Source of the DNA: a bacterium
Lineage (GTDB): Bacteria > Patescibacteriota > Minisyncoccia > Phycocordibacterales > Phycocordibacteraceae
DNA: 64,000 bases
Direction: 5' to 3'
Assembly: GCA_037200965.1 (NCBI GenBank)
Contig: JBBCGK010000001.1
Location: 1-64,000 of the forward strand
Of this stretch, positions 4,039-61,476 are shown in pieces (the first letter of the stretch is position 1; each line of letters opens with the position of its first letter). A program made the position numbers and the translations under genes. The notes below the pieces were generated by a model. That model made no database searches. It saw only the letters and a program-made list of their open reading frames with translations, and had not been told where the DNA came from.

Positions 4039-4092
4039 GCCCTCTATGATACCCCTAGCATCGAGTTAGTAAACTAATACACAACTCCTGCT

Positions 4093-16620: not shown

Positions 16621-17805
16621 ATGATCCGCCATCGACTTCTTTCCGGCATCGGCCTTCTCGCATTGGTAGGTATGTTCGGTGGCATACACGCGCCAAGCGT
16701 ACACGCCGCGGCACTATGCGTATTCGACCGCGACCTCGAGCTCGGGATAGAAGGAACGGACGTGCGCTGCCTCCAGCAGTATCTCAATAGCGCGGGCTTC
16801 ACCGTCTCCCTAAGCGGCGTCGGGTCTCCCGGCCACGAGACAACTCAGTTCAAGGACCTCACTAAAAAAGCGGTAGCGGCATGGCAGGCGGCAAACGGGA
16901 TCAGCGCGACAGGATATTTCGGTCCGGTTTCGCGCGCGAAGTACCTCAGGCTTGCCGGGGGAGCTCCGTCGGCTCCGGCCGCATCGGGCGACGAGGCCCT
17001 CAAGGCCCAGATCGCGTCCCTTCTCGCGCAGGTGAATGCGCTCAAGACATCCGCCCCGGCTGCCGCAAGCGGCAAGGCGCTTGACGCCCAGAATGCGATC
17101 AAGAAGGCGATAACGATGCTAAAGAACGCGGATGACGAGATAGACGACGCGAGCGGCGATATCGGATACGCGGACAAGGAGCTCGACGACGCGCGTGATT
17201 CCCTCTTCAGTGCGGTTAACTGGTACTTCAAGAACGATTTCGCCCAGGCCGTCACGGATGCGGACAAGGCATACGAGAAGGCGACCGACGCGTTTAAGGA
17301 CGCGGGCGGGGAGACGAGCGAGGACAAGACCGACGACTATATCGACAAGATAAGCGACAAGCTCGACGACGCGCGGGACAAGGTCGATGATTCGGACAGC
17401 TCGAACGTAAAGGAAGCGGACAACGATCTCGACGATGCGGAGGACTATCTCGACAAGGCATACGACGCCTTTGACGACGAGAAATACGACGACGCAAAGA
17501 GCTATGCCGCAAAAGCCCGCGACCTCATAGACGACGCGCTCGACGTCCTTGAAAGCAAGGGGGACAAGAACGATGCGAAGGACGCCATAAGCGACGCGGA
17601 AAACGCGATCGACGACGCGCAGGACGCTATCGACAAGGCCGACGACCGGGGGAAGGACGTGGATGACGCGAACGATATGCTCGATGACGCGAAGGCGAAG
17701 CTCAAGAAGGCGAACAGCGTCTATGATGACAAGGACTACGATAAAGCTGTCGACTACGCAAACGATGCGGAGGATCTTGCGAACGACGCGCAGGACGAGG
17801 TGTAG
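16621..17805 (+). CDS. secreted peptidoglycan-binding-domain protein with long acidic Asp/Ala/Lys-rich repeat region
   Basis: Signal-peptide-like N-terminus. PG_binding_1-like segment (...CLQQYLN...GYFGPVSRAKY). About 250 aa of D-rich low-complexity repeats (DDA, DKA motifs). Confidence 0.65.
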   Translation: MIRHRLLSGIGLLALVGMFGGIHAPSVHAAALCVFDRDLELGIEGTDVRCLQQYLNSAGFTVSLSGVGSPGHETTQFKDLTKKAVAAWQAANGISATGYFGPVSRAKYLRLAGGAPSAPAASGDEALKAQIASLLAQVNALKTSAPAAASGKALDAQNAIKKAITMLKNADDEIDDASGDIGYADKELDDARDSLFSAVNWYFKNDFAQAVTDADKAYEKATDAFKDAGGETSEDKTDDYIDKISDKLDDARDKVDDSDSSNVKEADNDLDDAEDYLDKAYDAFDDEKYDDAKSYAAKARDLIDDALDVLESKGDKNDAKDAISDAENAIDDAQDAIDKADDRGKDVDDANDMLDDAKAKLKKANSVYDDKDYDKAVDYANDAEDLANDAQDEV

Positions 17806-17867
17806 ATACGCTGAACTATAAATGATACGATCAGTGCAGTAACTGAAAAACTGCAAGGAGCCTGAGT

Positions 17868-18068
17868 ATGCCGTTAAACGCAGAGACGCTGGCGAAGATG
17901 CCGCCGGGGCCCTATTCCTGGGCGATAAAGGGAAACTTCCTGTACCTTATAGACGGCACCGGGAAAAAGATCGCCACCCTATTGGGAACATCCGAAACGA
18001 GGAACGCGTTGCTTGACTTCATTATCGCAGCCGAGCGACACAAAGACGCACTTCCGGTGCATGACTAA
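17868..18068 (+). CDS. hypothetical small protein
   Basis: 66-aa ORF with ATG start in an intergenic gap. Confidence 0.3.
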   Translation: MPLNAETLAKMPPGPYSWAIKGNFLYLIDGTGKKIATLLGTSETRNALLDFIIAAERHKDALPVHD

Positions 18069-42908: not shown

Positions 42909-42984
42909 GGGCCGTTAGCTCAGTTGGTAGAGCACCTCATTTGCAATGAGGGGGTCGCAGGTTCGAATCCTGTACGGTCCACCA
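42909..42984 (+). tRNA. tRNA-Ala(TGC) with encoded CCA
   Basis: Acceptor GGGCCGT/ACGGTCC with G3-U70 (Ala identity). D-arm GCTC-AGTTGGTAGAGC. Anticodon stem CCTCA/TGAGG with loop TTTGCAA (anticodon TGC). T-arm GCAGG-TTCGAAT-CCTGT. Discriminator A then CCA. Confidence 0.9.
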
Positions 42985-44515
42985 AATCTGATTTTTCAGC
43001 AACAACCTGCTGATTTATCTCGTAAATCCAACCTAATTTCGCGGTTCCAAAACCTGTATTTTTATCGTATCTAATTCCTTCGGGAAGGACGAGTTTTTGG
43101 AACCGCTTTTGGGCGTCTACCCCGATGCTGCTCCATGTGCGGGGCAGGTCTGAAATAAACGTGGTAGCGTAGGCTATTGCTGCTTCTATGTCGAGCTTAT
43201 CGAGGTTGTTTTCTCGAATGGTGATTTGCTTTGCGGCAATCTCATTGTCGGTCTTCTCGATAATCTCCTTGCCGAAGTCCTCGCTGACCGTGCCTTTGCG
43301 AATCATCTCTGCGTACTCGAACTTCTTTTGGCGCAGCTCCTCAAGTTCGGTTTGCTGCTGCTTGATAATATCGTCGAGTAATGAGGCATTGCTGCGCCAT
43401 ACTTCTACGACAATCTCGCTGAACAGCGCGAGGAACCCTTGCTTTGGAGTGATAGTGCCAAGCCATGCAAGAAAGTCTGTGTGCATCTTTTCTTGCGAAA
43501 TGTTCTTGGCATACATGGGGCACTGCTTATTGTGGCAATGGTAGTAAGAATAAACGCCGCCGTTGCCGCGCGGATGACTGCCACTCAACCCGATACTGCA
43601 AGCGGCGCAGCGTACGTCCCTTGTGAGCGGGAAATCGGGGTGATTCTTGAGCTTCTTGATGACCTTCGGAACCTTTCCTTTGCGGATAAGCTGTACCTGG
43701 ATAAACTCCTCGGGCGTAATCATCGCCTGGTGCTTACCCTCGACTTCTTTGCCCGTGAACGGATTGAGGATGATGCCCGCATAGAACTTATTGGAAAGAA
43801 TCTCGTCAATCTTCTGCGGATAGATTTTGCGGCCTCGCAGCGTCGTGAGACCCCATTGGTTTGCGAGCTTTGCCAGCTCGACGTTGCCACTCACTTTCTT
43901 CTCAAGACAGGCACGGAAAAGCGCCTGAATTATCGGGAAGCGCTTTGGGTCTGGGTCATCGGCTTCCGTCTTTTTCATGCCGCGCCTCTTGAATTGCTTG
44001 CAGGTATAGCCAAGCGGCGACTTCCAGGGATAGATACCCTGATTTATCTTCTCGCTCATACCATCAGAGCACTGCTGCTTCCTGATAGCGTTCTCATAGT
44101 CCGCTGATGCGGCCGCAACCGTCTCGACTAGTTTCTCAATCGGCTTATTGCCGATAGGTTCGGTAACGGAAAGAAGTGTCGTCCCATAACCGGACAACTT
44201 CTTTCTTATAAAGAAATGGTCTTCTGTGCTGCGAGAAAATCTGTTGACACGAAGCACTAGGAACGCATGAATCTGGCCGTTGTGCTTGCGGCAGAACTCG
44301 ATGGCTCTCAAGAACTCTTTTCGATTATTGAGCGATAGGTCTTTTGCTGATTGCCCTTCCTCTCGGAATACTTCGACGACTTCATAGCTGTTGCGCTCGC
44401 AATACCTCCTGCACTCTGCCTCCTGAAACTCCAAGCTCGTACCGTCAACCTGCTCGTCGGATGAGACGCGCACGTAGATGATTGCTTTTCTTGTTGTGGA
44501 AGTTTTCATGCTCAT
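42920..44515 (-). CDS. large serine recombinase (integrase)
   Basis: 531 aa. N-terminal resolvase catalytic domain (AIIYVRVSSDEQ), recombinase domain, Zn-ribbon (CAACS...CHNKQC) and a coiled-coil. The last ~19 codons (GFEPATPSLQMRCSTN) are read from tRNA-Ala sequence. Confidence 0.8.
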   Translation of the reverse strand: MSMKTSTTRKAIIYVRVSSDEQVDGTSLEFQEAECRRYCERNSYEVVEVFREEGQSAKDLSLNNRKEFLRAIEFCRKHNGQIHAFLVLRVNRFSRSTEDHFFIRKKLSGYGTTLLSVTEPIGNKPIEKLVETVAAASADYENAIRKQQCSDGMSEKINQGIYPWKSPLGYTCKQFKRRGMKKTEADDPDPKRFPIIQALFRACLEKKVSGNVELAKLANQWGLTTLRGRKIYPQKIDEILSNKFYAGIILNPFTGKEVEGKHQAMITPEEFIQVQLIRKGKVPKVIKKLKNHPDFPLTRDVRCAACSIGLSGSHPRGNGGVYSYYHCHNKQCPMYAKNISQEKMHTDFLAWLGTITPKQGFLALFSEIVVEVWRSNASLLDDIIKQQQTELEELRQKKFEYAEMIRKGTVSEDFGKEIIEKTDNEIAAKQITIRENNLDKLDIEAAIAYATTFISDLPRTWSSIGVDAQKRFQKLVLPEGIRYDKNTGFGTAKLGWIYEINQQVVAEKSDLVDRTGFEPATPSLQMRCSTN

Positions 44516-44520
44516 GTGTT

Positions 44521-45417
44521 TTATGTTAGGCGGTTCACTGCATCGCGGAGACCAGCATCGCTGACGTGCAGATAGCGGCTCGTGGTCTCCAGCTTTGAGT
44601 GGCCGAGAAGATTCTTGATAGCAAAGAGGTCAACACCGTTGGTCAAAAGCGAAACACTGAACGTATGACGCAGCGAGTGAACACCTACGTGCTCCTTCTT
44701 GATACCTGCTTTCTTGATGTAGTGCTTGATAAGGTGGTATACGCTGCCGGTGCTCAATCCATTGCCAAGCCGACTGATAAAGAGATATGGCACATCGGTC
44801 TCCGGCCGCTTTTCGAGATGCTTGCGCAATACCTCGACTACCACGCAGTTGAGCGGGATAGTGCGTTCTTTATCTCCCTTACCGCGCACCTTGATGGTGG
44901 GCTGCGCCGAATCAAGACTGACGCTGGTGAGCTTGAGCCCTACCAACTCGGAGAGACGGACACCCGTATTGAGGAATGTGATGACAATGGCGAGGTCGCG
45001 TGCAAGGTAAAACGGTGTTGCGGTGCGCTTTACGGCAGCAATCAGCGCTTCGTATTCTTCTTTGGTCAAATAGCTCGGCTCCTTGTGCGGTAGCTTCGGA
45101 GTCTCAACTTCGGCGGCAGGATTTATCGTAAGAGCATCAAACTGCACCAGGTATTTGAAAAAGGATTTTATTGAGGAGAGCTTGCGGGCGCGGGTTACGG
45201 CGCTGTTCGGCTTCTTGATGCCGTTATGCGTGAGTTCCGAGAGGAAGGCGCGGACATCATCACGCGATACTTTCTTGATATTGCTTTTGCCGCGCGACTC
45301 CAAAAACTCGGTGAACTTTTCCAAGTCAAGTCGATATGCAGCCATCGTACGCACCGATGCGTTTTTGTCGCTGTGAAGGTAATTGATGAATTGTGAGATA
45401 TAATTCTGCATAATCAT
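44521..45417 (-). CDS. tyrosine recombinase (XerC/XerD-like phage integrase family)
   Basis: 298 aa. N-terminal SAM-like domain. Catalytic R...HxxR...Y (HSLRHTF, LGHSKLETTSRYLH). Confidence 0.85.
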   Translation of the reverse strand: MIMQNYISQFINYLHSDKNASVRTMAAYRLDLEKFTEFLESRGKSNIKKVSRDDVRAFLSELTHNGIKKPNSAVTRARKLSSIKSFFKYLVQFDALTINPAAEVETPKLPHKEPSYLTKEEYEALIAAVKRTATPFYLARDLAIVITFLNTGVRLSELVGLKLTSVSLDSAQPTIKVRGKGDKERTIPLNCVVVEVLRKHLEKRPETDVPYLFISRLGNGLSTGSVYHLIKHYIKKAGIKKEHVGVHSLRHTFSVSLLTNGVDLFAIKNLLGHSKLETTSRYLHVSDAGLRDAVNRLT

Positions 45418-47177: not shown

Positions 47178-47390
47178 CTACGCCTGCATTTCGGCTGGCG
47201 CGGGCAGCGTACTCACAAAGGGTGATGGCATTGCCTTGTCCTTTGCAGATACGAGACCTTTCTTTTGCCAACTATCAAATGCGAGATTTGCAGCGATGTA
47301 GAGTTCATCACGGACAGCCTCAACAGCCTCATCGGAGAGGAGGTTTGCTTCGTTGCCTAGAACTTTTTTGCATTGCGCGATGCTCAACAT
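47178..47390 (-). CDS. hypothetical protein
   Basis: 70-aa ORF in the island. Confidence 0.3.
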   Translation of the reverse strand: MLSIAQCKKVLGNEANLLSDEAVEAVRDELYIAANLAFDSWQKKGLVSAKDKAMPSPFVSTLPAPAEMQA

Positions 47391-47678
47391 AAGGGTTGGC
47401 GTCGGCGCGTTGTGAGCAGTTTCTAATTTGTGGAGCTGTTCAAAAGAAAAGACCCGCAGAAGAATCAGAAAACCACTGTGTAAACAGTGTCTTACTAGTT
47501 CCTATGCGGGGCGGAGTTGGTGCCTGGCTATCGAGAAGTCTCGATGTGCTCTGCGGCTAAAAAATTTGCCCTTGCCGTATTAGTTGACGTTGATATGCAA
47601 CGTGCTGACTGGGTACAGTTTAGTGCTGTAGACAATGAGACGCAAGCGTTTTTCAACAATGCTTGTGGAGAGCGACCA

Positions 47679-47709
47679 TGTCAATATGACAGTTTAGTCA
47701 ATTTTGTCA
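47679..47709 (+). promoter_or_regulatory. candidate operator: perfect palindrome TGTCAATATGACA plus a third TGTCA half-site
   Basis: TGTCA-ATA-TGACA at 47679-47691. A further inverted TGTCA sits at 47705-47709. Located ~60-90 bp upstream of the HTH gene that precedes the Type III R-M operon. Confidence 0.4.
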
Positions 47710-47767
47710 TAGTTTGATATACTATGACCATCGGCGTGAGGGATTATTATTAGACCGCCGCTTCAAT

Positions 47768-47968
47768 ATGGCTTCAAAGGACAAAAACTACCTGACGATT
47801 CAAGAAGTCGCCAAAAAATTGGAGGAGCGGCACTTCGACATCACCGAGCGAACGGTGTATCGCTATGTCCAAAAAGGAAAGATACGGGCAATCAAAATCG
47901 GCGGCTGGCGTATCGAGAAAAAAGATTTTGAAAAGTTCCTCGAAGAAAGCTCAAACACCAAGAAATAA
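47768..47968 (+). CDS. excisionase-family HTH DNA-binding protein (candidate controller of the R-M operon)
   Basis: ATG at 47768 (MASKDKNYLTIQEVAKKLE...RTVYRYVQKGKIRAIKIGGWRI). Stop is 4 nt before the mod start. Confidence 0.55.
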   Translation: MASKDKNYLTIQEVAKKLEERHFDITERTVYRYVQKGKIRAIKIGGWRIEKKDFEKFLEESSNTKK

Positions 47969-47972
47969 TTTT

Positions 47973-49769
47973 ATGAAGAACCAGCCAACAAAAGTAAATC
48001 TCGCCTCCGCAAATCTCTCCGAGGAGAAGCTGTTTGAGTTGCGGCGTATCCTTCCCGAAGCGTTCAGCGAAAACAAAATTGACTGGGAGAAGCTCCGCAC
48101 GGTTCTTGGCGACGCGGTGGATGCTCATATCGAGAAGTTCGGCTTTACCTGGGCGGGCAAGGGCAACGCCATCAAGAATGTTTTGATACCGAGCAAGGCC
48201 ACGCTCAACCCCGCTCCCGACGAGAGTGTGATGTTCGACGAGAGCCAGAATCTTTTTATCGAGGGCGACAACCTCGAAGTCTTGAAGCTTTTGCAAAAGG
48301 CGTACTTTGAGAAGGTGAAGATGATTTATATAGACCCGCCGTACAACACCGGCGGCGACTTCGTGTACAAGGACAACTTTACCGCACCGCTTGATAACTA
48401 CCTCCATCAGACCGGCCAGAAGAACGGCAACGGCGAGCATCTCACGACAAACAAGGAAACCAACGGCCGCTTCCACAGCGATTGGCTCTCAATGATGTAT
48501 CCGCGTCTCAAGCTCGCGTGGAATCTTTTGCGCGACGACGGCGTTATCTTCATCAGCATTGATGATAACGAGGTGCATCATCTCCGCATATTGCTAAATG
48601 AAGTGTTTGGCGAAGAAAACTTTATTGGTGAGTTTATCGTCGTACGTGCAGAAGGGGGTGGTTTAGCACATCAGTATGTGAAAGGACATGATTATCTGCT
48701 TGCATACGCAAAGTCTATTACAGACTTTGAACCACTCCGTCGCCCGAAAGATATTAGAGGCAAAATTATTGAGAAAGACGGCAAGGAATACTGGATAGAA
48801 GAAGACTGGCTCCGCCGAGAGTTCGGTAAGTACGGCACTCTCCTATACGAAGACATTGAGGAAGTGAAGGGGGCTAACAAGAAAGCGGAAATTGACGCTG
48901 GTTTGCAGAGCGGAGAGTATCAACTGATAAAGAAAAATGGCGGCCATATTGTTGGTCGACTTCGCCTAATTGAAGAAGATGGCTCCAAGTTCTACAGCAT
49001 CCTCAAACATCTTTCTGCGAGGGGAAACGATGATTTGCAGGAATTGGAAATGGGCAAACTCTTTGACTTTCCAAAGCCGGTATCTTTGCTGCGCGAACTC
49101 ATTTTGGGAGCCACGTTCTTTAGTAAGAATGACGGCGATATTATTCTCGACTTTTTCGCTGGCTCTGGTACCACGGCTCATGCTGTAATGGCACAAAATG
49201 CGGAAGATGGAGGCAATCGAAAGTGGATTGCTGTTCAACTACCGGAGAAGACCGAGAGCGATAGCGAAGCGTTCAAAGCCGGATACAAAACTATTGCCGA
49301 CCTTACTAAAGAACGTATACGCCGCGCCGCAAAGAAGCTAGAAAATACTGATGGCTTCAAAATCTTCAAGCTCGCAGCATCAAACTACCCCGAGAACGCT
49401 TTTGAGTTCGACCCAGATAAAACAGAAGACGAGAACAAAGCCGCCTTCGAGGACTACTTGAAGCACGCAAAGCGCGCCAAGCTTATTGACGACCTAGACG
49501 AGACGAGCGTCATCTACGAAAACATCGTCAAGGAAGGATTCTCGCTCAACTCCAAGATTCAGGAAGGCGTGCCAGGAAACAACAAGGTCTACACCATCAC
49601 CGACGGCGACCGGCAGTTTTCTATCTGCCTCGACCGTTCGATTGATGACACGACCGTAAAGAACATCACGGAGTGGGCTAAAGGAGCGACCTTTATCTGC
49701 TTCGATAATGCGCTCTCTGACAGCCAGAAAGCAAACCTCGGCCTCCACGTGGAGCTGAAAACGATATAA
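47973..49769 (+). CDS. mod: Type III restriction-modification system methyltransferase (Mod, N6-adenine)
   Basis: ATG at 47973 (MKNQPTKVNL). SAM motif and catalytic DPPY (IYIDPPYNTGGDF). Central variable (target-recognition) region. Motif I (FFAGSGTTAHA) after it, as in Mod enzymes. Confidence 0.85.
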   Translation: MKNQPTKVNLASANLSEEKLFELRRILPEAFSENKIDWEKLRTVLGDAVDAHIEKFGFTWAGKGNAIKNVLIPSKATLNPAPDESVMFDESQNLFIEGDNLEVLKLLQKAYFEKVKMIYIDPPYNTGGDFVYKDNFTAPLDNYLHQTGQKNGNGEHLTTNKETNGRFHSDWLSMMYPRLKLAWNLLRDDGVIFISIDDNEVHHLRILLNEVFGEENFIGEFIVVRAEGGGLAHQYVKGHDYLLAYAKSITDFEPLRRPKDIRGKIIEKDGKEYWIEEDWLRREFGKYGTLLYEDIEEVKGANKKAEIDAGLQSGEYQLIKKNGGHIVGRLRLIEEDGSKFYSILKHLSARGNDDLQELEMGKLFDFPKPVSLLRELILGATFFSKNDGDIILDFFAGSGTTAHAVMAQNAEDGGNRKWIAVQLPEKTESDSEAFKAGYKTIADLTKERIRRAAKKLENTDGFKIFKLAASNYPENAFEFDPDKTEDENKAAFEDYLKHAKRAKLIDDLDETSVIYENIVKEGFSLNSKIQEGVPGNNKVYTITDGDRQFSICLDRSIDDTTVKNITEWAKGATFICFDNALSDSQKANLGLHVELKTI

Positions 49770-49771
49770 CT

Positions 49772-52402
49772 ATGAAGTTCAAGTTTGACGCAAACCAAGA
49801 TTTTCAAATAAACGCAGTCAACGCCATCGTTGGCGTCTTTGAAGGTCAGCCGAAGCGTCAAAGTGTGGTAGTAAATGTGCCCGCACTTTCCGTTTCCGGC
49901 TCATTGCCGCTCCAAACTACATACGGCATCTATCCGAACGAGCTGACGCTTTCCGACGAGGAGGTGTTTGCCAACGTCTGGAAGATTCAAGAGCAAAACA
50001 AAATCGGCAATGGCGGCACGGTTGAGGAGTACGACTTTTCTATCGAGATGGAGACGGGTACGGGTAAGACGTATGTGTACCTTCGTACCGTCTTTGAACT
50101 CAACAAGCAATACGGATGGAAGAAGTTTATCGTTCTCGTGCCGTCCGTCGCCATCCGCGAGGGCGTCATCAAGACGCTCCAAATCACCAAAGACCACTTC
50201 GCCGAGCTGTACGACAACGTGCCGTACCGCTTCTACGAGTACCAGTCCAAGAACATCTCGCAGGTGAAGCGCTTTGCGGAATCCAGCAACCTGGAGATTA
50301 TGGTGATGACGGTAGGTGCGTTCAACAAGGACGCGAACGTGCTCTATGCCGCCCGCGACCAGATGCAGGGCGAGCAGCCTATCAGCTACATCCAGCGCAG
50401 CAACCCCGTCCTCATCCTCGACGAGCCGCAGAATATGGAAGGTGAAGCGACGAAGGAGGCGCTCAAGAACTTCAACGCGCTTGCACGCCTGCGATACTCC
50501 GCGACGCATCGCAATCCGTACAACCTCATGTACCAGCTCACGCCGTTCGATGCGTATCAGCTCGGCCTCGTAAAGAAGATTGAGGTGTATTCCGTTACGG
50601 ATGACGACACCGGCATCTCGCGCCCGTCGCTCAACCTCATCTCCGTTGAATCCGGCAAGGCGCTCAAGGCAAAGTTAGAGGCCATCGTGAAAGATGCCGA
50701 CGGCGCATTGAAGCGCAAGAAGCTCACCGTCAAACAGAACGACGACCTCGCGCAGAAGACCGGCAACGACGTATACGCCGGCTATATCGTGGACGAGCTT
50801 GACGCCGATGCGCCAGACCTCGGGCAGATTGGTAGGATTCGCTTTCGCAACAACGTGGAGATTCGCCAGGGTGAAGGCGTAGCAAACAACAACGAGCAAG
50901 TGATGCGCGAGCAGATTGAGCAGACCATCCGCCGCCACTTCGAGAAACGCAACCAGCTCCGCGATATGGGCATCAAGGTGCTCTCCCTCTTTTTCATAGA
51001 CAAGGTAGACAACTACGTTCAATCAGACGGGTTTATCCGCTCTGCGTTCATAGCCGAGTTCAATCGCCTCAAGAAAGACTATGGCGCTGACGGCATGGAC
51101 GTGGATACCGTCCACAAGGGATATTTCGCCAAGCGCGGCGAGGAGTATTTGGAGCGAGAGTCCAGCATCGCCGAGAACCAGGAAGCATACGAGCTGATTA
51201 TGAAGGACAAGGAGCGCCTGCTTTCCTTCGATGAGCCGACGGAGTTCATCTTCTCGCACTCCGCACTCAAGGAAGGATGGGACAACCCAAACATTTTCAA
51301 TATCTGCACCCTGCGCGAGACCGTTTCAGTCATCCGCAAGCGCCAGGAGATTGGCCGAGGTATGCGCCTCTGCGTCAATCAGGACGGAGAGCGTATTTTC
51401 TTGCGCAGCGTCAACCTGCTCTCCGTGATTGCAAACGAGAGCTATACGGAATACGTCTCATCGCTCCAGGGCGAATACGAGGAGGACGGTATCTACAAGT
51501 CTGCGCCGTTGCCGAACAATGCCAAGCGAAAGACCACGGTGAAGCTCAAGAAAGATTTTGATAAGGACACGGACTTTGCTGGTATCTGGGAACGCATCTC
51601 GAAGAAGACCCGCTATGTCGTGCAGGTTGATAGCGAGCGCGTCATCGAAGCGTCCGCAAAGCAGATTGCGAAGCTCCATCTCGCAAAGCCCAAGATGCGC
51701 GTCGAGCGCGCGGGCGTGAACATCGCGGCCGAAGGCATCACCGCAAACATCGTAGGCACCCGTGCCGAGGATTTGAGCCAGACCAAACGCACCATTGACC
51801 CTATCGAACTCATCAAAAACGAGACCAAGCTGACGCGCCACACGGTCGCGGAGATTTTGGCGAAAGCGGACAATACCGACTCCTTCCTCAAGAATCCCGA
51901 ACGCTTCTGCTTCGAGGCAACGCGCATCATCAAGGCCGAGCTGGTGAAGGATTACGTTTCCCAGATTCGCTATGAGGTACTGCCGGAGCAGTATGACCTC
52001 AAGCAGTTCGAGGACATCCCGAGCTACAAGGACGCGACGCACAAGGTGAACAACTCCATCTACGACGCCATCGTGTATGACTCCGACGTGGAGAAGAACT
52101 TTGCCGTCGCCCTCGATGCCGACGAGCGCGTGAAGCTCTTTATCAAGATGCCCAACTGGTTCAAGGTGAACACGCCTATCGGCGGCTACAATCCCGACTG
52201 GGCAATCGTAACGGCCAAGCGAGACCTCCAGGGCAACGAGGAGAAGGAGCGCGTGTATTTCGTGATTGAGACGAAGGGCGACATCTCCAACCTGCGCGAG
52301 AGCGAGGGACAAAAAATTGCTTCCGCGAAGAAGCACTTTGAAGTCATCGAGGTGAACTACAAGGAGGTCGAGAACTACGGGCAATTTGCTGAACAACTAT
52401 GA
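49772..52402 (+). CDS. res: Type III restriction enzyme Res subunit (SF2 helicase + endonuclease)
   Basis: 876 aa. Helicase motif I (ETGTGKTYVY), DEAH-like LILDEPQNM, C-terminal PD-(D/E)xK-like region. Starts 2 nt after mod. Confidence 0.85.
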   Translation: MKFKFDANQDFQINAVNAIVGVFEGQPKRQSVVVNVPALSVSGSLPLQTTYGIYPNELTLSDEEVFANVWKIQEQNKIGNGGTVEEYDFSIEMETGTGKTYVYLRTVFELNKQYGWKKFIVLVPSVAIREGVIKTLQITKDHFAELYDNVPYRFYEYQSKNISQVKRFAESSNLEIMVMTVGAFNKDANVLYAARDQMQGEQPISYIQRSNPVLILDEPQNMEGEATKEALKNFNALARLRYSATHRNPYNLMYQLTPFDAYQLGLVKKIEVYSVTDDDTGISRPSLNLISVESGKALKAKLEAIVKDADGALKRKKLTVKQNDDLAQKTGNDVYAGYIVDELDADAPDLGQIGRIRFRNNVEIRQGEGVANNNEQVMREQIEQTIRRHFEKRNQLRDMGIKVLSLFFIDKVDNYVQSDGFIRSAFIAEFNRLKKDYGADGMDVDTVHKGYFAKRGEEYLERESSIAENQEAYELIMKDKERLLSFDEPTEFIFSHSALKEGWDNPNIFNICTLRETVSVIRKRQEIGRGMRLCVNQDGERIFLRSVNLLSVIANESYTEYVSSLQGEYEEDGIYKSAPLPNNAKRKTTVKLKKDFDKDTDFAGIWERISKKTRYVVQVDSERVIEASAKQIAKLHLAKPKMRVERAGVNIAAEGITANIVGTRAEDLSQTKRTIDPIELIKNETKLTRHTVAEILAKADNTDSFLKNPERFCFEATRIIKAELVKDYVSQIRYEVLPEQYDLKQFEDIPSYKDATHKVNNSIYDAIVYDSDVEKNFAVALDADERVKLFIKMPNWFKVNTPIGGYNPDWAIVTAKRDLQGNEEKERVYFVIETKGDISNLRESEGQKIASAKKHFEVIEVNYKEVENYGQFAEQL

Positions 52403-55400
52403 ACTTCTATGGACTCTTTATCGGGATAGACAGATATGCCTCTCCAAGTATCAACTGGTTGAGTTGTGCAAAGCGTGATGCAGTAGCACTTCATGCGCTC
52501 TTTACTGACACACTTGGCGGCAGCACGAAACTACTTACAGATGAACAAGCCACGCGCCCTACCATTGAAGCGGAGTTTGCAGAACTGGCTAAATGCAAAG
52601 AGGATGACGTGGTAGTCATAACCTTCTCTGGACACGGTACTACTACGCACGAGTTAGTTGTCCATGATGCGGACAGAAGTAATTTGCCAGGCATGTGCAT
52701 CCCGCTTTCAGTTGTAAGCGAGTGGGTTGCAAAAATACCAGCAAAAAAGTTGCTGTTTATCTTGGATTGCTGCTTTTCTGGCGGCATGGGTGCGAAAGCT
52801 CTCCAGGTTGATGTTGTCTCACGTGATATAACTTCAGCCGATGATTTGCTCAAACAACTTTCTGGAGATGGACGGTTGATTTTGACCGCATCGCTTGCCA
52901 CAGAACCTGCTTGGGAGAACCAAAAGCTCGGCCACGGCTTTCTCACATATCATCTGCTGACAGCAATGCAGGGTACCGAAGAAGTGAAAAAGGCAGGTAA
53001 GATTACTGCGTACCGCTTACTTGAATACGTAACGGAAAGAGTGGTAGATGACGCAAAAAAGATTGGTAAAGAGCAACATCCAACTCTCCGCGGCACGATG
53101 GACGGCTCGTTGACGTTTCCTGTATTTACTCCTGGCACGCTATACGCCGCCGCGTTTCCAGAGAGAACAAAAGCAAAAGTTAGTGCAGATATTCAATCGC
53201 TTGAACCCTATGGATTCCCCGAGACCATACTAAAAGCATGGGCGGGTGCGATACCATCGCTCAACCAGTTGCAGATAGACGCTATCAACGACTTCGGGCT
53301 ACTTGATAGTGAGCACTTGGTTGTTTCCGCACCAACATCCTCTGGTAAGACAATGGTTGGTGAACTTGCTGCCATCAGTGGCGCACTGAAACGTCGGAGA
53401 GCACTTTTCTTATTTCCTTTGAAGGCGCTTGTAAATGACAAGCTGCGCCATTTCAATAGCACATACGGTGCGTTTGGTCTGAAAACCATCAAAGCAACTG
53501 GCGAGAGTACAAGCGATGACATGCTCCCTTTGATGCGTGGCCAGTATGATATTTGCTTGATGACGTATGAGAAGTTTTCTGCGCTCGTTCTAGGCTACCC
53601 GCATATCCTTGAGCAAATCGGAACCATTGTAGTTGATGAGGTGCAGATGATTGCCGATGAATCACGTGGAGTGAATCTTGAGTTTATCCTTACACTATTG
53701 AGGATGCGACGTAGAGAAGGAGCTGAACCGCAGCTCATTGCTCTTTCTGCCGTAATTGGTGATACCAACGGACTGGAGCGATGGCTTGGCGGCCGACTGC
53801 TGCGCAGAACAGAGCGTCCCGTGCCACTTGATGAAGGAATTATCAAAGCCGACGGCAGCTTCCGCTATATCGAGTCTGACACTGGAACGGAGAAGACCGA
53901 TACGTCTTATATTATCCCTGAATCACGCAAAGGTTCGAGCCAAGACTTGATTATCCCTCTAGTGCGAAAATTGGTCGGTGAAGGTAAAAGCGTGATTGTA
54001 TTCCGTGAGACACGGGGTGAAGCGCGCGGCTGCGCCCTCTACCTCGCAAGCTCTCTTGGATTGCCGGCCGCACAAGTTGCCCTCGATACATTGCCGAATA
54101 GCGACCCGTCCATCTCATCCAACAAGTTGCGAGAGGCACTTGGAGGCGGTATCGCTTTTCATATATCGGATTTGGATACCGAGGAGCGTCTTGTTGTAGA
54201 GGAACAATTTAGAGCCAGACCTACAGCGCTCAAAGTGATAGCCGCGACCACGACTCTTGCAATGGGAGTGAACACCCCTGCGGAGGCGGTTATCATTGCC
54301 GGTCTCACACATCCAGGAGACCATCCGTATTCAGTTGCAGAGTACAAAAACATCATCGGTCGTGCTGGACGACTTGGCTTCTCGCAGCGTGGCACTTCCT
54401 ACGTTGTCGCAATGAATGGTAGCGATGAACACCACATTTGGAATAGCTACGTTCTTGCATCCCCAGAAGACCTGAACTCCCGCTTTTTGGCAGACCATAC
54501 AGACCCGCGCACATTGATTGTGAGAGTTTTGATAGCTGCTGGTCGTGCGGGTTTGCCAGCACAGCAGATAGTTGAGTTCTTGGAGGAGAGCTTTGGCGTG
54601 TTCCAGCAGAAAGCAATAAACGCTAGCTGGAAATGGGATGAGCAACAGCTTCTGCAAGCTCTCGCTGACTTGAATGCGCACGGATTGGTTGAGAAGGATA
54701 AGGATGATGTATACCACCTCACAGAACTCGGAAAGCTGGCGGGTGTTTCTGGCGTTGAGGTGGAGTCAGTCATTCGAGCTGTGAACGCTTTAAGCGGTCT
54801 GCCGACCACAGACATCAACGACCCTGCACTCATTACGCTCTCGCAAGCAACCGCGGAGCTTGACCAGGTATTATTCCCGATGAATAAGAAAAGCACGCAA
54901 AAAGAACCGCAGGCATGGGCTACTGAAATACGAAATCAAAATGTCCCTACTCAAATAACACAGGAACTTGGGCGCAACACCTCGGATACAACGCAACAAA
55001 CATTGCGCGCTAAAAAAGCAGTAGCAAGTCTACTTTGGATAACTGACCGGCCGCTGAATGAAGTAGAGACAACTATGACACAGTTTGGCGGTGGGCTAGA
55101 TGGTGCCGCTGGTGCAATTCGTGGTGTTGCTGCACGAACGTGTGATGTGCTGCCTACGATTGCTCGCATTGCCGAACTGCTGAATCCTGGTTTTGATTTG
55201 AGCAATCGAGTATCACGACTGTTGATACGGCTTGAGATTGGCGTACCGGCCGCTGGTGTTGAACTCGGCTCTCGCATCGGCAGAATACTTACTCGTGGTG
55301 ATTATCTCAACCTTCTCAAAGCAGGCATCTCTACTGCTGAACAATTTGAGACAGCAGACGAGAAAGTCCTTTTGTCGTGCCTCGGAGACAGCACCGATAA

Positions 55401-55491
55401 ACTTGAACAAGCAAAGCTCGCATTAGAAAACACCTCACAGGAAGAACCTGCTCCGATGATGCCACCGATTTTACCAGCCTATGAAGGATAA
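52399..55491 (+). CDS. fusion protein: N-terminal caspase-like (peptidase C14/CHAT-like) domain + Ski2/Hel308/Lhr-like SF2 helicase + C-terminal helical region
   Basis: 1030 aa. Caspase-like dyad: GIDRY, catalytic His in FSGHG, catalytic Cys in LDCCFSGG. Helicase motifs I APTSSGKT, II VVDEVQMI, III SAV, VI IIGRAGRLG. Overlaps the res stop by 4 nt (ATGA). Confidence 0.7.
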   Translation: MNFYGLFIGIDRYASPSINWLSCAKRDAVALHALFTDTLGGSTKLLTDEQATRPTIEAEFAELAKCKEDDVVVITFSGHGTTTHELVVHDADRSNLPGMCIPLSVVSEWVAKIPAKKLLFILDCCFSGGMGAKALQVDVVSRDITSADDLLKQLSGDGRLILTASLATEPAWENQKLGHGFLTYHLLTAMQGTEEVKKAGKITAYRLLEYVTERVVDDAKKIGKEQHPTLRGTMDGSLTFPVFTPGTLYAAAFPERTKAKVSADIQSLEPYGFPETILKAWAGAIPSLNQLQIDAINDFGLLDSEHLVVSAPTSSGKTMVGELAAISGALKRRRALFLFPLKALVNDKLRHFNSTYGAFGLKTIKATGESTSDDMLPLMRGQYDICLMTYEKFSALVLGYPHILEQIGTIVVDEVQMIADESRGVNLEFILTLLRMRRREGAEPQLIALSAVIGDTNGLERWLGGRLLRRTERPVPLDEGIIKADGSFRYIESDTGTEKTDTSYIIPESRKGSSQDLIIPLVRKLVGEGKSVIVFRETRGEARGCALYLASSLGLPAAQVALDTLPNSDPSISSNKLREALGGGIAFHISDLDTEERLVVEEQFRARPTALKVIAATTTLAMGVNTPAEAVIIAGLTHPGDHPYSVAEYKNIIGRAGRLGFSQRGTSYVVAMNGSDEHHIWNSYVLASPEDLNSRFLADHTDPRTLIVRVLIAAGRAGLPAQQIVEFLEESFGVFQQKAINASWKWDEQQLLQALADLNAHGLVEKDKDDVYHLTELGKLAGVSGVEVESVIRAVNALSGLPTTDINDPALITLSQATAELDQVLFPMNKKSTQKEPQAWATEIRNQNVPTQITQELGRNTSDTTQQTLRAKKAVASLLWITDRPLNEVETTMTQFGGGLDGAAGAIRGVAARTCDVLPTIARIAELLNPGFDLSNRVSRLLIRLEIGVPAAGVELGSRIGRILTRGDYLNLLKAGISTAEQFETADEKVLLSCLGDSTDKLEQAKLALENTSQEEPAPMMPPILPAYEG

Positions 55492-56320
55492 AAATATGAT
55501 GAAAAAACGAACAGCAGTAATACTCATCGTCGTCGCTATCGTGGCAACATACGCTGTCATCATGTGGGCGTATTACGGAGACCCTTCATGGTCTAGCAGC
55601 AGCGACACCGCAAGCAGCACCGAGATACCGGCAGACTGCAACGTGCTCGCGTTCAACCTCAACGGAGAGATAGCAACATACCTGCCGCAAGATAGTATCA
55701 GTGAGACCGATTCCGTCTCATCGGCCGATATTCTCGATGGTCTCAAGCTGGCGAAGGAGAACCCGCAAATAAAGGCGGTGCTGCTTTCGGTTGATTCCGG
55801 CGGCGGGAGCGTCGTAGCCGGTGAGGAGATAGCCAACGGCTTCAAGGCGCTCGGCAAGCCCTCTGCGGCGGTTATCCGCGACCTGGGAGCTTCTGCCGCA
55901 TACTGGGCGGCTACCGGCGCAGGCAGGATATTTGCCTCGAAGGTGTCGGATGTGGGTAGTATCGGCATCACCGCCTCATACCTCGACAATACCGTTGCGA
56001 ACGCAAAGGACGGTCTCACGCCCGTGGCAATCGTCTCTGCGCCGTATAAGAACGAGGGCGACCCCGACTTTCCGCTCACGGCAGCAGGCAAGGCGGACAT
56101 ACTCGCATCTATCAAGAAAGACCATGAGGTTTTCGTGGACGAAGTTGCAGCAAACCGGAAGCTCGACCGCAGCAAGGTAGCAGCGCTTGCAGATGGCCGA
56201 ACGTATGTTGGCACCGACGCCGTGGACAACGGACTGATTGACGGCATCGGCAGCATTCCCGAAGCGACCGACTATCTTACTCAACAGATTGGTGAGTCTG
56301 CGCAGGTGTGCTGGTACTAA
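55481..56320 (+). CDS. SppA/S49-family serine peptidase (signal-peptide-peptidase-like), membrane-anchored
   Basis: 279 aa. N-terminal TM. S49 core with Ser in GASAAYW and downstream Lys. Start overlaps the upstream gene's end by 11 nt. Confidence 0.65.
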   Translation: MKDKNMMKKRTAVILIVVAIVATYAVIMWAYYGDPSWSSSSDTASSTEIPADCNVLAFNLNGEIATYLPQDSISETDSVSSADILDGLKLAKENPQIKAVLLSVDSGGGSVVAGEEIANGFKALGKPSAAVIRDLGASAAYWAATGAGRIFASKVSDVGSIGITASYLDNTVANAKDGLTPVAIVSAPYKNEGDPDFPLTAAGKADILASIKKDHEVFVDEVAANRKLDRSKVAALADGRTYVGTDAVDNGLIDGIGSIPEATDYLTQQIGESAQVCWY

Positions 56321-56972
56321 CCGACGCGCGCAGCATCGTCATATCTTTCTCGCTCATTTTTCCGGCCATCGCCCGATTGAGAATGTTCATCATAAAAGTT
56401 GCCGTCTCGCGCTTGTCGGCGTTTGATTTGATATTCAGAGACTCCTTGCTGTGCGCAGCGCGCATCACATAGTTGAACACGTTTAGCACGTAGTTGCGGC
56501 GCTTCACGATGATGTCATCGTCGTAGCTGCTTTCATCGTCCTGGTCGCGCTTGAGAATATCCATCGCATCGTTGAGCAGCTCGCCTGCAAGGGTGCTCGC
56601 GCCCATCTCTAGCGTCTGCGCATCCGGCACGATGGCGGCATTTTGCTCATCCCGCACCTTGATGATTTGCCGCAGCTCCCGCTGCTCCTGCTTGTAGCCC
56701 TGCTCGGCGAGCAGCTCCGCGTCCCACTTCTTGCGCCACAGGCGATATTGCTTCTCCCAGGGAAAGAAGGTAAACGGGGCGATGGACTTGTTGAAATCGT
56801 TGATGATACGGATGGCGCTGCGGTCTGGTTCCTTGCGGCGCTCGGCCAGGTAGAAGGCGCGGAAGGACGGGAGAAGCTCCCGAAGCTCACCGACCCTCTG
56901 GTATTTGCCGTCAAAGCCCTCGTAGAAGGAGAAGATGGGCTTGGTATCGTTTTGTGGTGTTGATGTGTCCAT
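56277..56972 (-). CDS. hypothetical protein
   Basis: Start taken at the internal ATG 56972 (MDTSTPQND...) to avoid overlapping the recombinase remnant. Acidic helical protein, no family. Confidence 0.4.
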   Translation of the reverse strand: MDTSTPQNDTKPIFSFYEGFDGKYQRVGELRELLPSFRAFYLAERRKEPDRSAIRIINDFNKSIAPFTFFPWEKQYRLWRKKWDAELLAEQGYKQEQRELRQIIKVRDEQNAAIVPDAQTLEMGASTLAGELLNDAMDILKRDQDDESSYDDDIIVKRRNYVLNVFNYVMRAAHSKESLNIKSNADKRETATFMMNILNRAMAGKMSEKDMTMLRASVSTSTPAQTHQSVE

Positions 56973-56988
56973 AGGGGCTATAATGAGG

Positions 56989-58554
56989 CTATATCGCAGC
57001 GTGCTGGGGCTGGAGAATGGCTTGCCACTCCTGCAATCCTTCAAGGACTTGGTTCCAGTTCGCGCGGATGTAGTCCACATCGTCGGAGTTGGTGGTAGCT
57101 AACTCCTCAAACAGCCTGGTTTTACTTAGCTTATTTCCGGTTCTATAACCCTCATTTTTGGCATACTCCAATTTGCGCTCAAAGAGGAAGAAAAAGAGCC
57201 GGTGCTGACCATGCACATCGAACAAATCCCAAGTAGATACGGGGCTTTTTAGCATTCCCATACTCTTATCAAGGGCGGTTCTATAAGGTATTCCTAAGTC
57301 CTTGCTGATGAGGGTCGTGCCCTCCATTTTCTCAAGCTCGCGTGCGCTGTCTTCTATCTGAGCTTCATACGTGCGCACTACAGCCTCAGAATTGGCCTTA
57401 CGCGCCATCTCTGACAGCTCCTTGAGCTTCTTCTTCAACTCCTCCTTTCGCTGCTCCTGAAGGTAATCCTGCCATTCAAATATTCTTGACTCCTGTGCCC
57501 ATATTTTATCGAACACGCTAGAAGCAACACCAGTAACGGCAGGCTTGAGTCGGTTGCGTGCGAGCACCTTCTTGAAATCATCCTCGACATCCTTCTTCCG
57601 AAGGGTCTTGAAGTAGAGCTCACACTTCCTGTTCTGGCAGAAGTAGTATTCGTACTTCTTCTTGCTGCGGCTCGTTGATGGAGCTGCTGAAAGATGGCCA
57701 TCACATAGGGCGCAGGTAATGAGGCCACGCAGTGGGAATTGGTCTGAGGTGTCTTTGCGAGGCTTGGCCTTTGCTTCGTCCTTTCCAAGCCGTGCCTGAA
57801 TGCGAAGGAAGGTGTCAGGTTTAATAAGACCTGTGTGCTGTCCGTCTCTTCGAGACACGCCCCAGGGGAGGTATTCAATGAATCCTGCAAAGAAAGGGTC
57901 TTCAAGCATTCCTGAAACATGGTCTAAGCATCGAACAGGCTCCTTACCAGCCCACATACCTCGCTCCACCATAAAGTTGGCGACATCAATCTTTCTTGGC
58001 AAATTGCCGCTCGCGAATCCTTCAAGAGCAGGCTTGATTACCTCGTAGCCAAGCTTATTCGGCTGCGCAACCTTTCCACGGCCAAGAATGAACACCATGT
58101 CATACCCGCGCTTCTTACTGAATGGCCAGTAGCCTGCGAGCAGCCGAGCTTCCATCTTGTTGATTACCTGTTCCGCGTTCTGCTCACGGTCGAGTTCAGC
58201 CTGCGCTGCGAGTACACGCTCAACGAATCTTCCCGAAGGGGAGTCCTCGAAGTTGAAGTTAAGGCAGAGCGGAATAATGTCGCACTCAGTGAACGCTTCC
58301 ATCAGCGCCATATGAAACTTCAGGTCGCGTGCAAAGCGTTTGAGGTCGTCGAAGACAACAACGAACTTCTTATCGCGGTTTGCACGAACATACGCCAATA
58401 ACTCTCGCATGCTTGGACGGCGCATGAAGTCGCCACCTCCTGTGTACGTGTCTATGAAGGACCGGTCATAGGGTATACCAAGCTCTGTAAGTCGAATCTT
58501 GCATCGCGTCTCCTGACTTGATTGGCCACTGCCATTCAGCTCCTGGCTCGAGTT
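56989..58554 (-). pseudogene. large serine recombinase remnant lacking the N-terminal catalytic region
   Basis: ORF 56989-58425 begins mid-resolvase domain (…RPSMRELLAYVRANRDKKFVVVFDDLKRFARDL). The frame continues upstream to 58554 (…IDTYTGGDF) with no YxRVS catalytic-serine motif, then hits a stop and an AT-rich junction. C-terminal recombinase and Zn-ribbon regions are intact. Confidence 0.6.
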
Positions 58555-60800: not shown

Positions 60801-60871
60801 TCGGGCCGCCGGGAATCGAACCCGGTCTACATCCACCCCATGGACGCGTACTACCGGTATACTACGGCCCG
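60801..60871 (-). tRNA. tRNA-Pro(GGG)
   Basis: Minus-strand cloverleaf. Acceptor CGGGCCG/CGGCCCG. D-arm GTAT-ACCGGTA-GTAC. Anticodon stem CGTCC/GGATG with loop ATGGGGT (anticodon GGG). T-arm CCGGG-TTCGATT-CCCGG. Discriminator A, no CCA. Confidence 0.8.
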
Positions 60872-60896
60872 TTTCGTTCGCTGGTCCTGTGTCCTG

Positions 60897-60967
60897 TCGG
60901 GCCGCCGGGAATCGAACCCGGTCTTTACGCACCCGAAGCGCACGTACTACCGGTATACTACGGCCCG
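60897..60967 (-). tRNA. tRNA-Pro(CGG)
   Basis: Same acceptor, D and T arms as the neighbouring tRNA-Pro. Anticodon stem TGCGC/GCGTA with loop TTCGGGT (anticodon CGG). Confidence 0.8.
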
Positions 60968-60984
60968 ACACGACACACGACCTG

Positions 60985-61057
60985 TGGACCCTAGGGAATT
61001 CGAATCCCTGACCTCGTCAATGCGAATGACGCGCTCTACCAGCTGAGCTAAGGGCCC
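60985..61057 (-). tRNA. tRNA-Ala(CGC)
   Basis: Acceptor GGGCCCT/AGGGTCC with G3-U70. D-arm GCTC-AGCTGGTAGAGC. Anticodon stem CGTCA/TGACG with loop TTCGCAT (anticodon CGC). T-arm AGGGA-TTCGAAT-TCCCT. Confidence 0.8.
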
Positions 61058-61086
61058 GTTCGGAAGAATATAGCACGAGGAACCGG

Positions 61087-61299
61087 CTATTTGGAGTCTT
61101 CTTCCCGCTTCCTGAAGAGGCCATAGAGGCGCTCATAGTATGCGAGGGCTTTCCCTTGGAGAAGAAGGCGCGCGCCGACCATCTCGGCGCCGACGAACAC
61201 GAGCCAGGAGCCGGGCGTGAACGGGGTTACGAGCGCGAGAAGGCCGATGACGATCAGCGCTACCCCGATGATTTTCTTCCATGGCAGGTTCATAGGCAT
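61087..61299 (-). CDS. small membrane protein (hypothetical)
   Basis: 70 aa with two TM helices. Confidence 0.35.
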   Translation of the reverse strand: MPMNLPWKKIIGVALIVIGLLALVTPFTPGSWLVFVGAEMVGARLLLQGKALAYYERLYGLFRKREEDSK

Positions 61300-61348
61300 T
61301 CATCATAGCCTTTTCGAGCTCCCTTTGATATCGTGAGCGGGCAATCGA

Positions 61349-61422
61349 GGGCGATTAGCTCAGTTGGTTAGAGCGTCCGCCTCACACGCGGAAGGTCACA
61401 AGTTCGAGTCTTGTATCGCCCA
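61349..61422 (+). tRNA. tRNA-Val(CAC)
   Basis: Acceptor GGGCGAT/ATCGCCC. D-arm GCTC-AGTTGGTTAGAGC. Anticodon stem TCCGC/GCGGA with loop CTCACAC (anticodon CAC). T-arm ACAAG-TTCGAGT-CTTGT. Discriminator A, no CCA. Confidence 0.8.
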
Positions 61423-61476
61423 CTTTCAACTAAGGCCAGTCAGCATACTGCCCTCATGCGCAGCTACTCGAGGAAG

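Follow-up and report, generated by a model that had tools for sequence, protein, structure and literature searches.

The question addressed here is whether five genes that lie packed together in a bacterial genome make up one antiphage system or are separate pieces of mobile cargo. They are found in a 64,000-nucleotide (nt) stretch of contig JBBCGK010000001.1, referred to here as the window, and run head to tail on the + strand as five open reading frames (ORFs): a DNA-binding protein of the HTH_17 family, the methyltransferase (Mod) and the restriction subunit (Res) of a Type III restriction-modification (R-M) system, a protein of 1030 amino acids (aa) with a caspase-like domain fused to a helicase, designated here CH, and a peptidase of family S49. 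An earlier note on this DNA had proposed that they form one composite defence system and pointed out that no named system fits the whole combination; the latter was confirmed by PADLOC. Regarding the former, our analysis favours another reading, a defence-cargo operon of independent modules in which CH would act as a single-protein sensor-effector, and we assign to it a probability of about 0.6.

That the five genes form a compact co-directional unit was borne out, all junctions being gaps or overlaps of ≤11 nt, and the predicted domains (HTH_17, N6_N4_Mtase, ResIII+RE_endonuc, Peptidase_C14+DEAD+Helicase_C and Peptidase_S49) all scored above the Pfam cut-offs. The first three junctions were also as the note had given them: 4 nt from the HTH stop to the mod start, 2 nt between mod and res, and an ATGA overlap between res and the CH gene. 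Two details changed. The operon had been placed at 47679-56320, and while its right end at 56320 stands, its left end does not, as the reading frame from the ATG at 47678 ends after three codons, the HTH ORF beginning at the ATG at 47768. An 11-nt overlap of the S49 and CH genes is obtained if S49 starts at the ATG at 55481; the ATG at 55496, which leaves a 4-nt gap, is likelier, because an AAGGA Shine-Dalgarno sequence lies 7-8 nt upstream of it and public gene calls use the same start. We infer that the five genes are co-transcribed. Close spacing is normal in this genome (with crudely called ORFs, the gap is ≤10 nt in 12 of the 30 other co-directional neighbour pairs in the window outside the operon, ~40%), so that the spacing supports co-transcription and says little on shared function.

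Genomic contexts of CH and of its neighbours

CH relatives are encoded in 290 of 185,579 species genomes, in many phyla, and the best 120 database matches to CH are all about 1030 aa long and 59-89% identical, again from many phyla. Relatives were also found on 19 plasmids and on one of 2.9 million viral contigs, and in none of 50,697 phage genomes. The CH family is large and has spread by horizontal transfer.

The neighbours of CH were compared by all-against-all BLAST clustering of the ORFs in 80 genome loci and, in the 123 distinct CH loci of the combined genome, metagenome and look-up sets, by scanning the immediate neighbours with Pfam and PADLOC. No universal partner of CH emerged from these comparisons, and the most frequent Pfam family accounted for at most 5 of 93 upstream and at most 4 of 89 downstream neighbours. 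More than a quarter of the loci (27/101) look monocistronic, with opposite-strand genes or gaps of >150 nt on both flanks. Type III Res was seen beside CH in 3/93 upstream neighbours, only in the window's own element lineage, and S49 in 2/89 downstream neighbours, in the same lineage. Within the genome-scan loci, homologues of the window Mod and Res adjoin CH in locus L001 only and S49 adjoins it in none; besides the window, the only places where S49 and CH are neighbours are the metagenomic contigs L085, L089 and L179. This distribution does not support a composite system of five genes.

The genes that do adjoin CH include other caspases, Type IV and Mrr-type nucleases, E1-E2 proteins, a cyclase of the cyclic-oligonucleotide-based antiphage signalling system (CBASS), ThsB-like TIR proteins, HamA (1/89 downstream neighbours), MkoC, Avs2, WYL proteins, PADLOC candidate (PDC) families, resolvases and transposases, and, among the upstream neighbours, two LexA-like proteins and two ribonucleotide reductases. 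On a conjugative Rhodopseudomonas plasmid CH adjoins TIR-TIR-caspase and PLD+AAA genes. CH is thus autonomous, and usually stands alone in defence islands. The earlier note had asked whether CH and S49 might be ordinary housekeeping neighbours; both turned out to be cargo of mobile elements or defence islands.

Two further observations concern the neighbours of CH. A separate caspase-family gene often lies beside CH, with four upstream and two downstream cases in six other loci in addition to that of the Rhodopseudomonas plasmid (pBAL398.3; L180 3167-5059), which belongs to a TIR-TIR-caspase block resembling Type IV Thoeris. DUF2158 matches were obtained for 4/93 upstream neighbours.

The nearest relatives of CH (67-89% identity) are encoded by integrative elements of the candidate phyla radiation (CPR)/Patescibacteria that are related to that of the window. 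The window and these sister elements have a common backbone of recombinases, a 70-aa gene, the HTH_17 leader and a 231-aa gene, and the sister elements also share a small gene of ~60-80 aa that is lacking in the window. Behind the same HTH_17 leader the cargo differs (L083, L085, L086, L066, L176 and L179). It consists of Type III R-M, CH and S49 in the window, L085 and L089; of Type III R-M, CH and an unrelated 229-aa protein in L001 and L083; of a Type IIG enzyme, a methyltransferase and CH in L086; and of CH alone in L066. In L179 (3-4036), which encodes the closest CH of all (89% identity), the leader is followed by S49 and then CH, the reverse of their order in the window, with no R-M. 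L168 and L170 carry Type I R-M followed directly by S49, with no CH; these two contigs begin inside hsdM, with no leader captured on them, and their placement in the family rests on the shared 231-aa backbone gene. R-M and S49 are exchangeable among the elements, and the operon is pieced together from modules that are each mobile on their own. The single composite system of the earlier note is not supported, the R-M being replaced (L086) or absent (L066, L179), the fifth gene replaced (L083) or absent, and S49 present behind hsdR without CH (L168, L170).

The 229-aa protein (L083 11129-11818), whose gene was also found in L001, L084, L120 and L134, fills the slot taken by S49 in the window. 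It has an N-terminal CxxC...CxxC motif resembling a zinc ribbon and no Pfam or NCBIfam match, and its PADLOC matches were marginal (E ~0.007-0.009). The Type I R-M operons of L168 (1220-1765, 3005-3811) and L170 (168-800, 2028-2834) contain extra genes between hsdM, hsdS and hsdR, which encode a 181-aa ClpP-like protease in L168 or a DUF4145 protein in L170 and, in both, a 268-aa protein without assigned function that is 89% identical between the two loci. Protease genes inside R-M operons could relate to restriction control.

S49 was also examined apart from CH. Its homologues are nearly all short CPR 'SppA' proteins, and the six distinct contexts sampled were all mobile-element-like or defence-like: after Type I hsdR (twice), after a Type III-like Mod/Res+RNase H+HNH block, in another HTH_17-led operon, beside a large AAA_11/12 helicase with WYL, and in a phage-like region with terminase (L172). 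The window S49 is 80% identical to the copy of L168, where there is no CH, and 59% identical to that of the five-gene relative L085, from which it follows that S49 does not co-evolve with CH. It is an accessory gene of the element family, tied neither to CH nor to R-M.

Domain architecture of CH

The CH ORF (52399-55491, + strand) gave Pfam matches to Peptidase_C14, DEAD and Helicase_C above the cut-offs. Its N-terminal metacaspase-like domain (~aa 1-245, 52399-53133) matches Peptidase_C14 with an E-value of 1.6e-13 (51.3 bits, cut-off 21.4), the PADLOC 'caspase' model with 1.5e-14 and the NCBIfam model 'caspase, EACC1-associated type' with 2.8e-25. His79 (SGHG) and Cys125 (DCCFSGG) align to the catalytic His86 and Cys139 of Arabidopsis metacaspase-4 (AtMC4), and the fusion of a Cys/His caspase-like domain to a superfamily 2 (SF2) helicase, recognised already in the earlier note, was confirmed. 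In 95 distinct full-length CH sequences the His79/Cys125 dyad and the helicase motifs I, II (DExQ), III and VI are invariant, which argues that both activities are under selection.

D123, two residues before the catalytic Cys, is also invariant. In metacaspases an Asp at this position goes with basic P1 specificity, and by this analogy D123 suggests that the predicted CH protease prefers Arg or Lys at P1. In the AlphaFold2 model (mean pLDDT 78.6) residues 127-145, straight after the catalytic Cys, form a disordered loop with pLDDT of 26-49; in caspases this is the site of the inter-subunit linker.

The rest of the protein (~aa 286-1030, 53254-55491) is a Hel308-like helicase with RecA1, RecA2, winged-helix, ratchet and C-terminal helical domains. 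The CH family profile matched Hel308/Hjm structures in the PDB with E-values of 1e-59 to 1e-65, and HamB with 1e-28. The CH model superposes on the Hel308/Hjm structures 2zj8, 9b15, 2va8 and 2p6r with target TM-scores of 0.77-0.85 over ~760 columns (Foldseek), and the NCBIfam Hel308-type model spans residues 284-1001. Judged from these profiles and the predicted structure, the helicase region has the full Hel308-type architecture, beyond a generic DEAD/Helicase_C pair. It thus resembles archaeal Hel308/Hjm and the helicase domain of DNA polymerase theta, matching Hel308 over its full length. In contrast to Hel308/Hjm, CH is bacterial and mobile, has an N-terminal caspase and carries DEVQ rather than DExH as motif II. 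We rejected CH as an orthologue of archaeal Hel308, its scores being far under the cut-offs of the curated equivalogs (272.5 bits against 887 for PRK02362, and 217 against 1200 for helicase_Hel308). A DNA-repair motor of the Hel308 type has been said to be absent from bacteria (PMC12278908).

The combination of caspase and Hel308 holds down to ~31% identity. The caspase is kept in 18 of 24 long distant relatives, distant relatives without it having no N-terminal domain, and no exchange of the N-terminal domain for a nuclease or a TIR domain, a sign of sensor/effector modularity, was seen among the distant representatives examined. A set of Hel308-like relatives of ~900 aa (P0324-P0387; 30-35% identical) is without the caspase and has archaeal helicase domain 4 and a ~200-aa C-terminal extension, three of them with a Trans_reg_C DNA-binding domain.

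Among the known defence systems, Hachiman (the HamA nuclease with HamB) is the one that CH resembles in having an SF2 helicase of the Ski2/Hel308 kind as the presumed sensor of DNA state over a toxic effector. The best PADLOC matches of CH are the HamB models (1.6e-34), and the Ski2-like SF2 core is present. However, there is no HamA/DUF1837 partner gene in the window operon, CH has its caspase domain where HamB has the N-terminal helical domain that binds HamA, the CH helicase is much nearer to archaeal Hel308 (1e-65) than to HamB, and the effector is fused rather than separate. HamB (8vx9) aligns to CH only over the helicase core, residues 303-665. CH was therefore rejected as a HamB orthologue or Hachiman member, given the missing HamA partner and the different N-terminus. 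It also differs from the protease-bearing Hachiman variant HamMAB, as its protease is a C14 caspase, not trypsin-like, and no gene for a pro-nuclease substrate is linked to it.

Nhi and Hna are likewise single polypeptides that join a helicase/ATPase sensor to a toxic catalytic domain and stand alone in defence islands; their effectors are nucleases and their helicases are of the SF1 type, whereas CH has a protease and an SF2 Hel308-like motor. With the bacterial caspase-like effectors (Type IV Thoeris, Canu CanABC, gasdermin-activating caspases and CHAT proteases) CH shares the use of a Cys/His protease of the C14 clan, and it differs from them in that the fused helicase would activate the protease, in place of a nucleotide signal or partner protein. 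No TIR, pro-nuclease, gasdermin or CRISPR partner is linked to CH in the window operon, and no TIR, pro-nuclease or gasdermin partner is conserved across the CH loci; membership in Type IV Thoeris, Canu or gasdermin systems was rejected as no such partners are linked.

HamB itself is a Ski2-like helicase that senses DNA damage and releases its effector, and its authors liken it in function to Hel308 (PMC12278908). Proteases that answer to a defence ATPase or helicase are an established type of effector, and some Hachiman systems use a protease step (PMC12799240). The metacaspase+helicase architecture has been counted twice, with no function given: in 12 of 671 proteins (PMC3501461) and in three cyanobacterial proteins (PMC8283722). 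In open-access papers and bioRxiv we found no description of a caspase-Hel308 defence, which may be described elsewhere. Public records annotate the CH family only as 'DEAD/DEAH box helicase', and the current hidden Markov model sets for finding defence systems recognise no system in it.

The other operon genes and the integrative element

The operon leader (47768-47968, + strand) encodes a 66-aa, excisionase-type DNA-binding protein that matches Pfam HTH_17 with an E-value of 1.8e-14, and also TIGR01764 and, weakly, MAD1. Upstream of it lies a promoter-like site, TAGTCA-17-TATACT with TG (47695-47728, + strand), a match to the consensus only that is a candidate promoter/operator of the operon. 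A perfect 8-nt inverted repeat, GTCATAGT-7-ACTATGAC (47706-47728), overlaps the -10 of this site and is a candidate operator for autoregulation by the HTH protein. Scans for promoters and terminators inside the operon gave counts close to the shuffle expectation and were uninformative.

Mod (47973-49769, + strand, 598 aa) matches N6_N4_Mtase (5.1e-30) and, over residues 6-593, the PADLOC model MTase_III (1.9e-164), and its translation holds the DPPY (IDPPYNTG) and FAGSG/FxGxG (FFAGSGTT) motifs. Res (49772-52402, + strand, 876 aa) has ResIII/DEAD and a C-terminal RE_endonuc domain (7.8e-34), and matches PADLOC REase_III with 2.5e-240. With both PADLOC matches covering the full length, the pair is predicted, as the note had it, to be a complete and ordinary classical Type III R-M. 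It is like EcoP15I-type systems in the mod-res order, in an N6_N4_Mtase Mod with DPPY and FAGSG motifs and in a Res that joins an SF2 motor to a C-terminal RE_endonuc domain; its sole oddity is its position between the HTH_17 leader and CH.

S49 (55496-56320, + strand; 274 aa, or 279 aa from 55481) is an SppA-like peptidase with an N-terminal membrane anchor. Its Peptidase_S49 match has an E-value of 2.2e-28 (99.6 bits, cut-off 24.9); against the NCBIfam SppA domain equivalog it scored 135.1 bits, under the cut-off of 155.45, and PADLOC gave no match. The Ser/Lys catalysis proposed earlier agrees with the alignment of its Ser (GASAAYW) and Lys (APYKNEGDP) to the E. coli SppA motifs GMAASGGYW and GTYKSAVEP, whose catalytic residues we take to be S409 and K209. 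The N-terminus, MMKKR followed by 22 hydrophobic residues and an acidic/Ser-rich segment, fits an N-in/C-out orientation by the positive-inside rule. From these charges and from the homology to B. subtilis and E. coli SppA, the catalytic domain probably faces outward, as in B. subtilis SppA, and direct interplay with a cytoplasmic caspase is accordingly unlikely. S49 shares with SppA (B. subtilis SppA, E. coli protease IV) the S49 fold, the Ser and Lys, a predicted single N-terminal anchor and the short Gram-positive size; it differs in residing on CPR mobile elements beside defence cargo, with no obvious housekeeping context. We also considered a prohead protease and rejected it for the window copy, since the membrane anchor is present and the match to the head-maturation model is weak (1.2e-6, below cut-off).

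The earlier note had placed the operon in an integrated low-GC island, and this was supported by both the GC content (0.45-0.56, compared with ~0.59 in the flanks) and the flanking recombinases. The GC content falls from a tRNA-Ala(UGC) gene (42909-42984, + strand; ARAGORN) at the left edge, which overlaps the 3′-terminal ~21 codons of the opposite-strand gene of a large serine recombinase (42920-44515, - strand, 531 aa; Pfam Resolvase+Recombinase) that has a homologue in sister element L083. This overlap is likely the integration site of the element. Next comes a tyrosine recombinase (44521-45417, - strand, 298 aa; Phage_integrase) that is 56% identical in L083, and then, divergent from the operon, the 70-aa backbone gene (47178-47390, - strand), with homologues at the same position in L083, L085 and L086. 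On the right, the 231-aa backbone gene (56277-56972, - strand; 267 aa with its end at 57080 if an upstream ATG is used), to which no function was assigned, is convergent with S49 and has homologues 67-75% identical at the same position in L083, L168 and L170, irrespective of cargo. The right arm is completed by a second large serine recombinase (56989-58425, - strand, 478 aa; Resolvase+Zn_ribbon_recom). A search for direct repeats of the attachment-site (att) type at the island ends revealed none that was convincing, as expected if the serine recombinases were responsible. The best explanation for the region is that it is the cargo operon of a ~16-kb integrative element in a small-genome, CPR/Patescibacteria-like bacterium.

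Elsewhere in the window, a tRNA cluster (Pro, Pro, Ala, Val; 60801-61423) lies just right of the island, the first tRNA-Pro abutting the start of a YceG gene. Another low-GC patch (0.44) was seen at 4001-5000, around a 314-aa ORF (4093-5037, - strand), and the AT skew is unusually high (0.37) at 17001-18000.

Readings of the operon and their implications

For the reading of independent modules we propose the following mechanism. The HTH_17 protein that leads the operon would probably regulate it via the inverted repeat over the promoter, and Mod and Res would provide first-line restriction. The Hel308-like 3′-5′ motor of CH would sense aberrant DNA (3′-tailed, branched or broken) arising from phage replication or DNA damage. 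Once the motor has loaded or oligomerised in an ATP-dependent way, the N-terminal metacaspase-like domain would become active as a protease. It would then cleave proteins of the cell, the phage or both, probably after Arg/Lys, and growth would stop (abortive infection). S49 would serve the element family as a membrane-anchored accessory peptidase, its catalytic domain probably directed outward. The DNA-sensing trigger, the activation and specificity of the protease and the abortive outcome are what we infer, with Hachiman (PMC12278908) as the model for DNA sensing and proteases gated by helicases or ATPases (PMC12799240) as a second precedent.

Several observations weigh against the reading of independent modules. 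L085 and L089 have the same order of five genes although they have diverged substantially (Mod 56%, S49 59% and CH 75-76% identity), and this could come from selection for the combination and not from inheritance alone. S49 and CH adjoin each other in three contexts and two orders (S49 after CH in the window and in L085/L089, before it in L179), more than is expected purely at random. The CH neighbours were called by a crude ORF picker. Moreover, some CH subclades have an upstream gene of their own, either a 78-aa gene 11 nt away (17 loci) or, in several other loci, a gene of ~205 aa at a distance of 5-6 nt; such small linked genes occur among L018, L025-L039, L050, L058 (~9750-9990) and L041, L048, L180. 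They may be lineage-specific partners or regulators of CH, and the single-gene status of CH may not be general.

Functional coupling of the Type III R-M and CH, with S49 left out, is possible and is the alternative that survives best, although we consider it unlikely. Restriction ends or stalled complexes would load the CH motor, the caspase would fire as a backup when restriction is overwhelmed, and translational coupling through the ATGA overlap of res and the CH gene would keep the two in fixed proportion. Besides this overlap, coupling is favoured by the persistence of HTH-Mod-Res-CH in three sister lineages that have diverged (L083, L085 and L089), by the position of CH directly after an R-M of another type, Type IIG, in L086, and by the response of Hachiman-type helicases to DNA damage (PMC12278908). 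However, almost all sampled CH loci are without an adjacent R-M gene, the operons of L179, with the closest CH, and of L066 contain none, and overlapping junctions are common in this genome. As R-M is the commonest defence cargo, two independent juxtapositions among about seven element contexts are also unremarkable.

A more far-reaching proposal, which we regard as rather improbable, is that CH represents a new class of single-protein innate immune sensor, a bacterial Hel308 homologue in which the monitoring of genome integrity or of foreign replication intermediates leads directly to proteolysis of the caspase type and suicide of the cell, that in the CPR element family it is wired behind exchangeable R-M systems whose products or failure trigger it, and that S49 adds an extracellular third layer at the surface.

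Slightly less probable again is a role of CH outside antiphage defence, either as a responder to DNA damage or replication stress (by regulated proteolysis or programmed death) or as an addiction/maintenance module of mobile elements. The Hel308 family consists of DNA-repair helicases (PMC12278908), the few LexA-like and ribonucleotide reductase neighbours mentioned above would suit such a role, and CH is carried by plasmids and integrative elements. On the other hand, CH is patchily distributed, in a pattern that reflects horizontal transfer (50-89% identity between phyla), its immediate neighbours are repeatedly known defence genes, and no repair genes are conserved nearby.

An integrated five-gene system, with the caspase and S49 cooperating after Type III restriction, either in a cascade or as two effectors, could account for the identical gene order in L085 and L089, the recurrence of S49 beside CH in L179 in the opposite order and the tight CH-S49 junction, and is nevertheless highly improbable, since S49 is missing from the sisters L083, L086 and L066 and adjoins CH in one lineage among ~120 CH loci, occurs after Type I hsdR without CH, with the L168 copy nearer than that of L085, has no PADLOC match, and by its predicted N-in/C-out topology would act outside the cell, apart from the cytoplasmic CH, which makes a two-protease cascade topologically unlikely.

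The locus is best seen as holding a candidate helicase sensor with a fused toxic effector, CH, next to an ordinary Type III R-M, in a five-gene arrangement that is a mosaic and not a new composite system. Its significance rests on the caspase-Hel308 family and on the CPR/Patescibacteria element family rather than on the combination of five genes, and CH is the part worth testing. The element family outlined here has interchangeable defence genes (CH and R-M of Types I, IIG and III) after a shared HTH_17 leader and often also carries a membrane S49 peptidase, in ultra-small bacteria whose immunity has so far been little studied. If CH is a defence protein, it would add a direct helicase-to-caspase link to bacterial immunity, with a motor of the DNA-repair type fused to the protease family that executes eukaryotic cell death, in one easily testable polypeptide.

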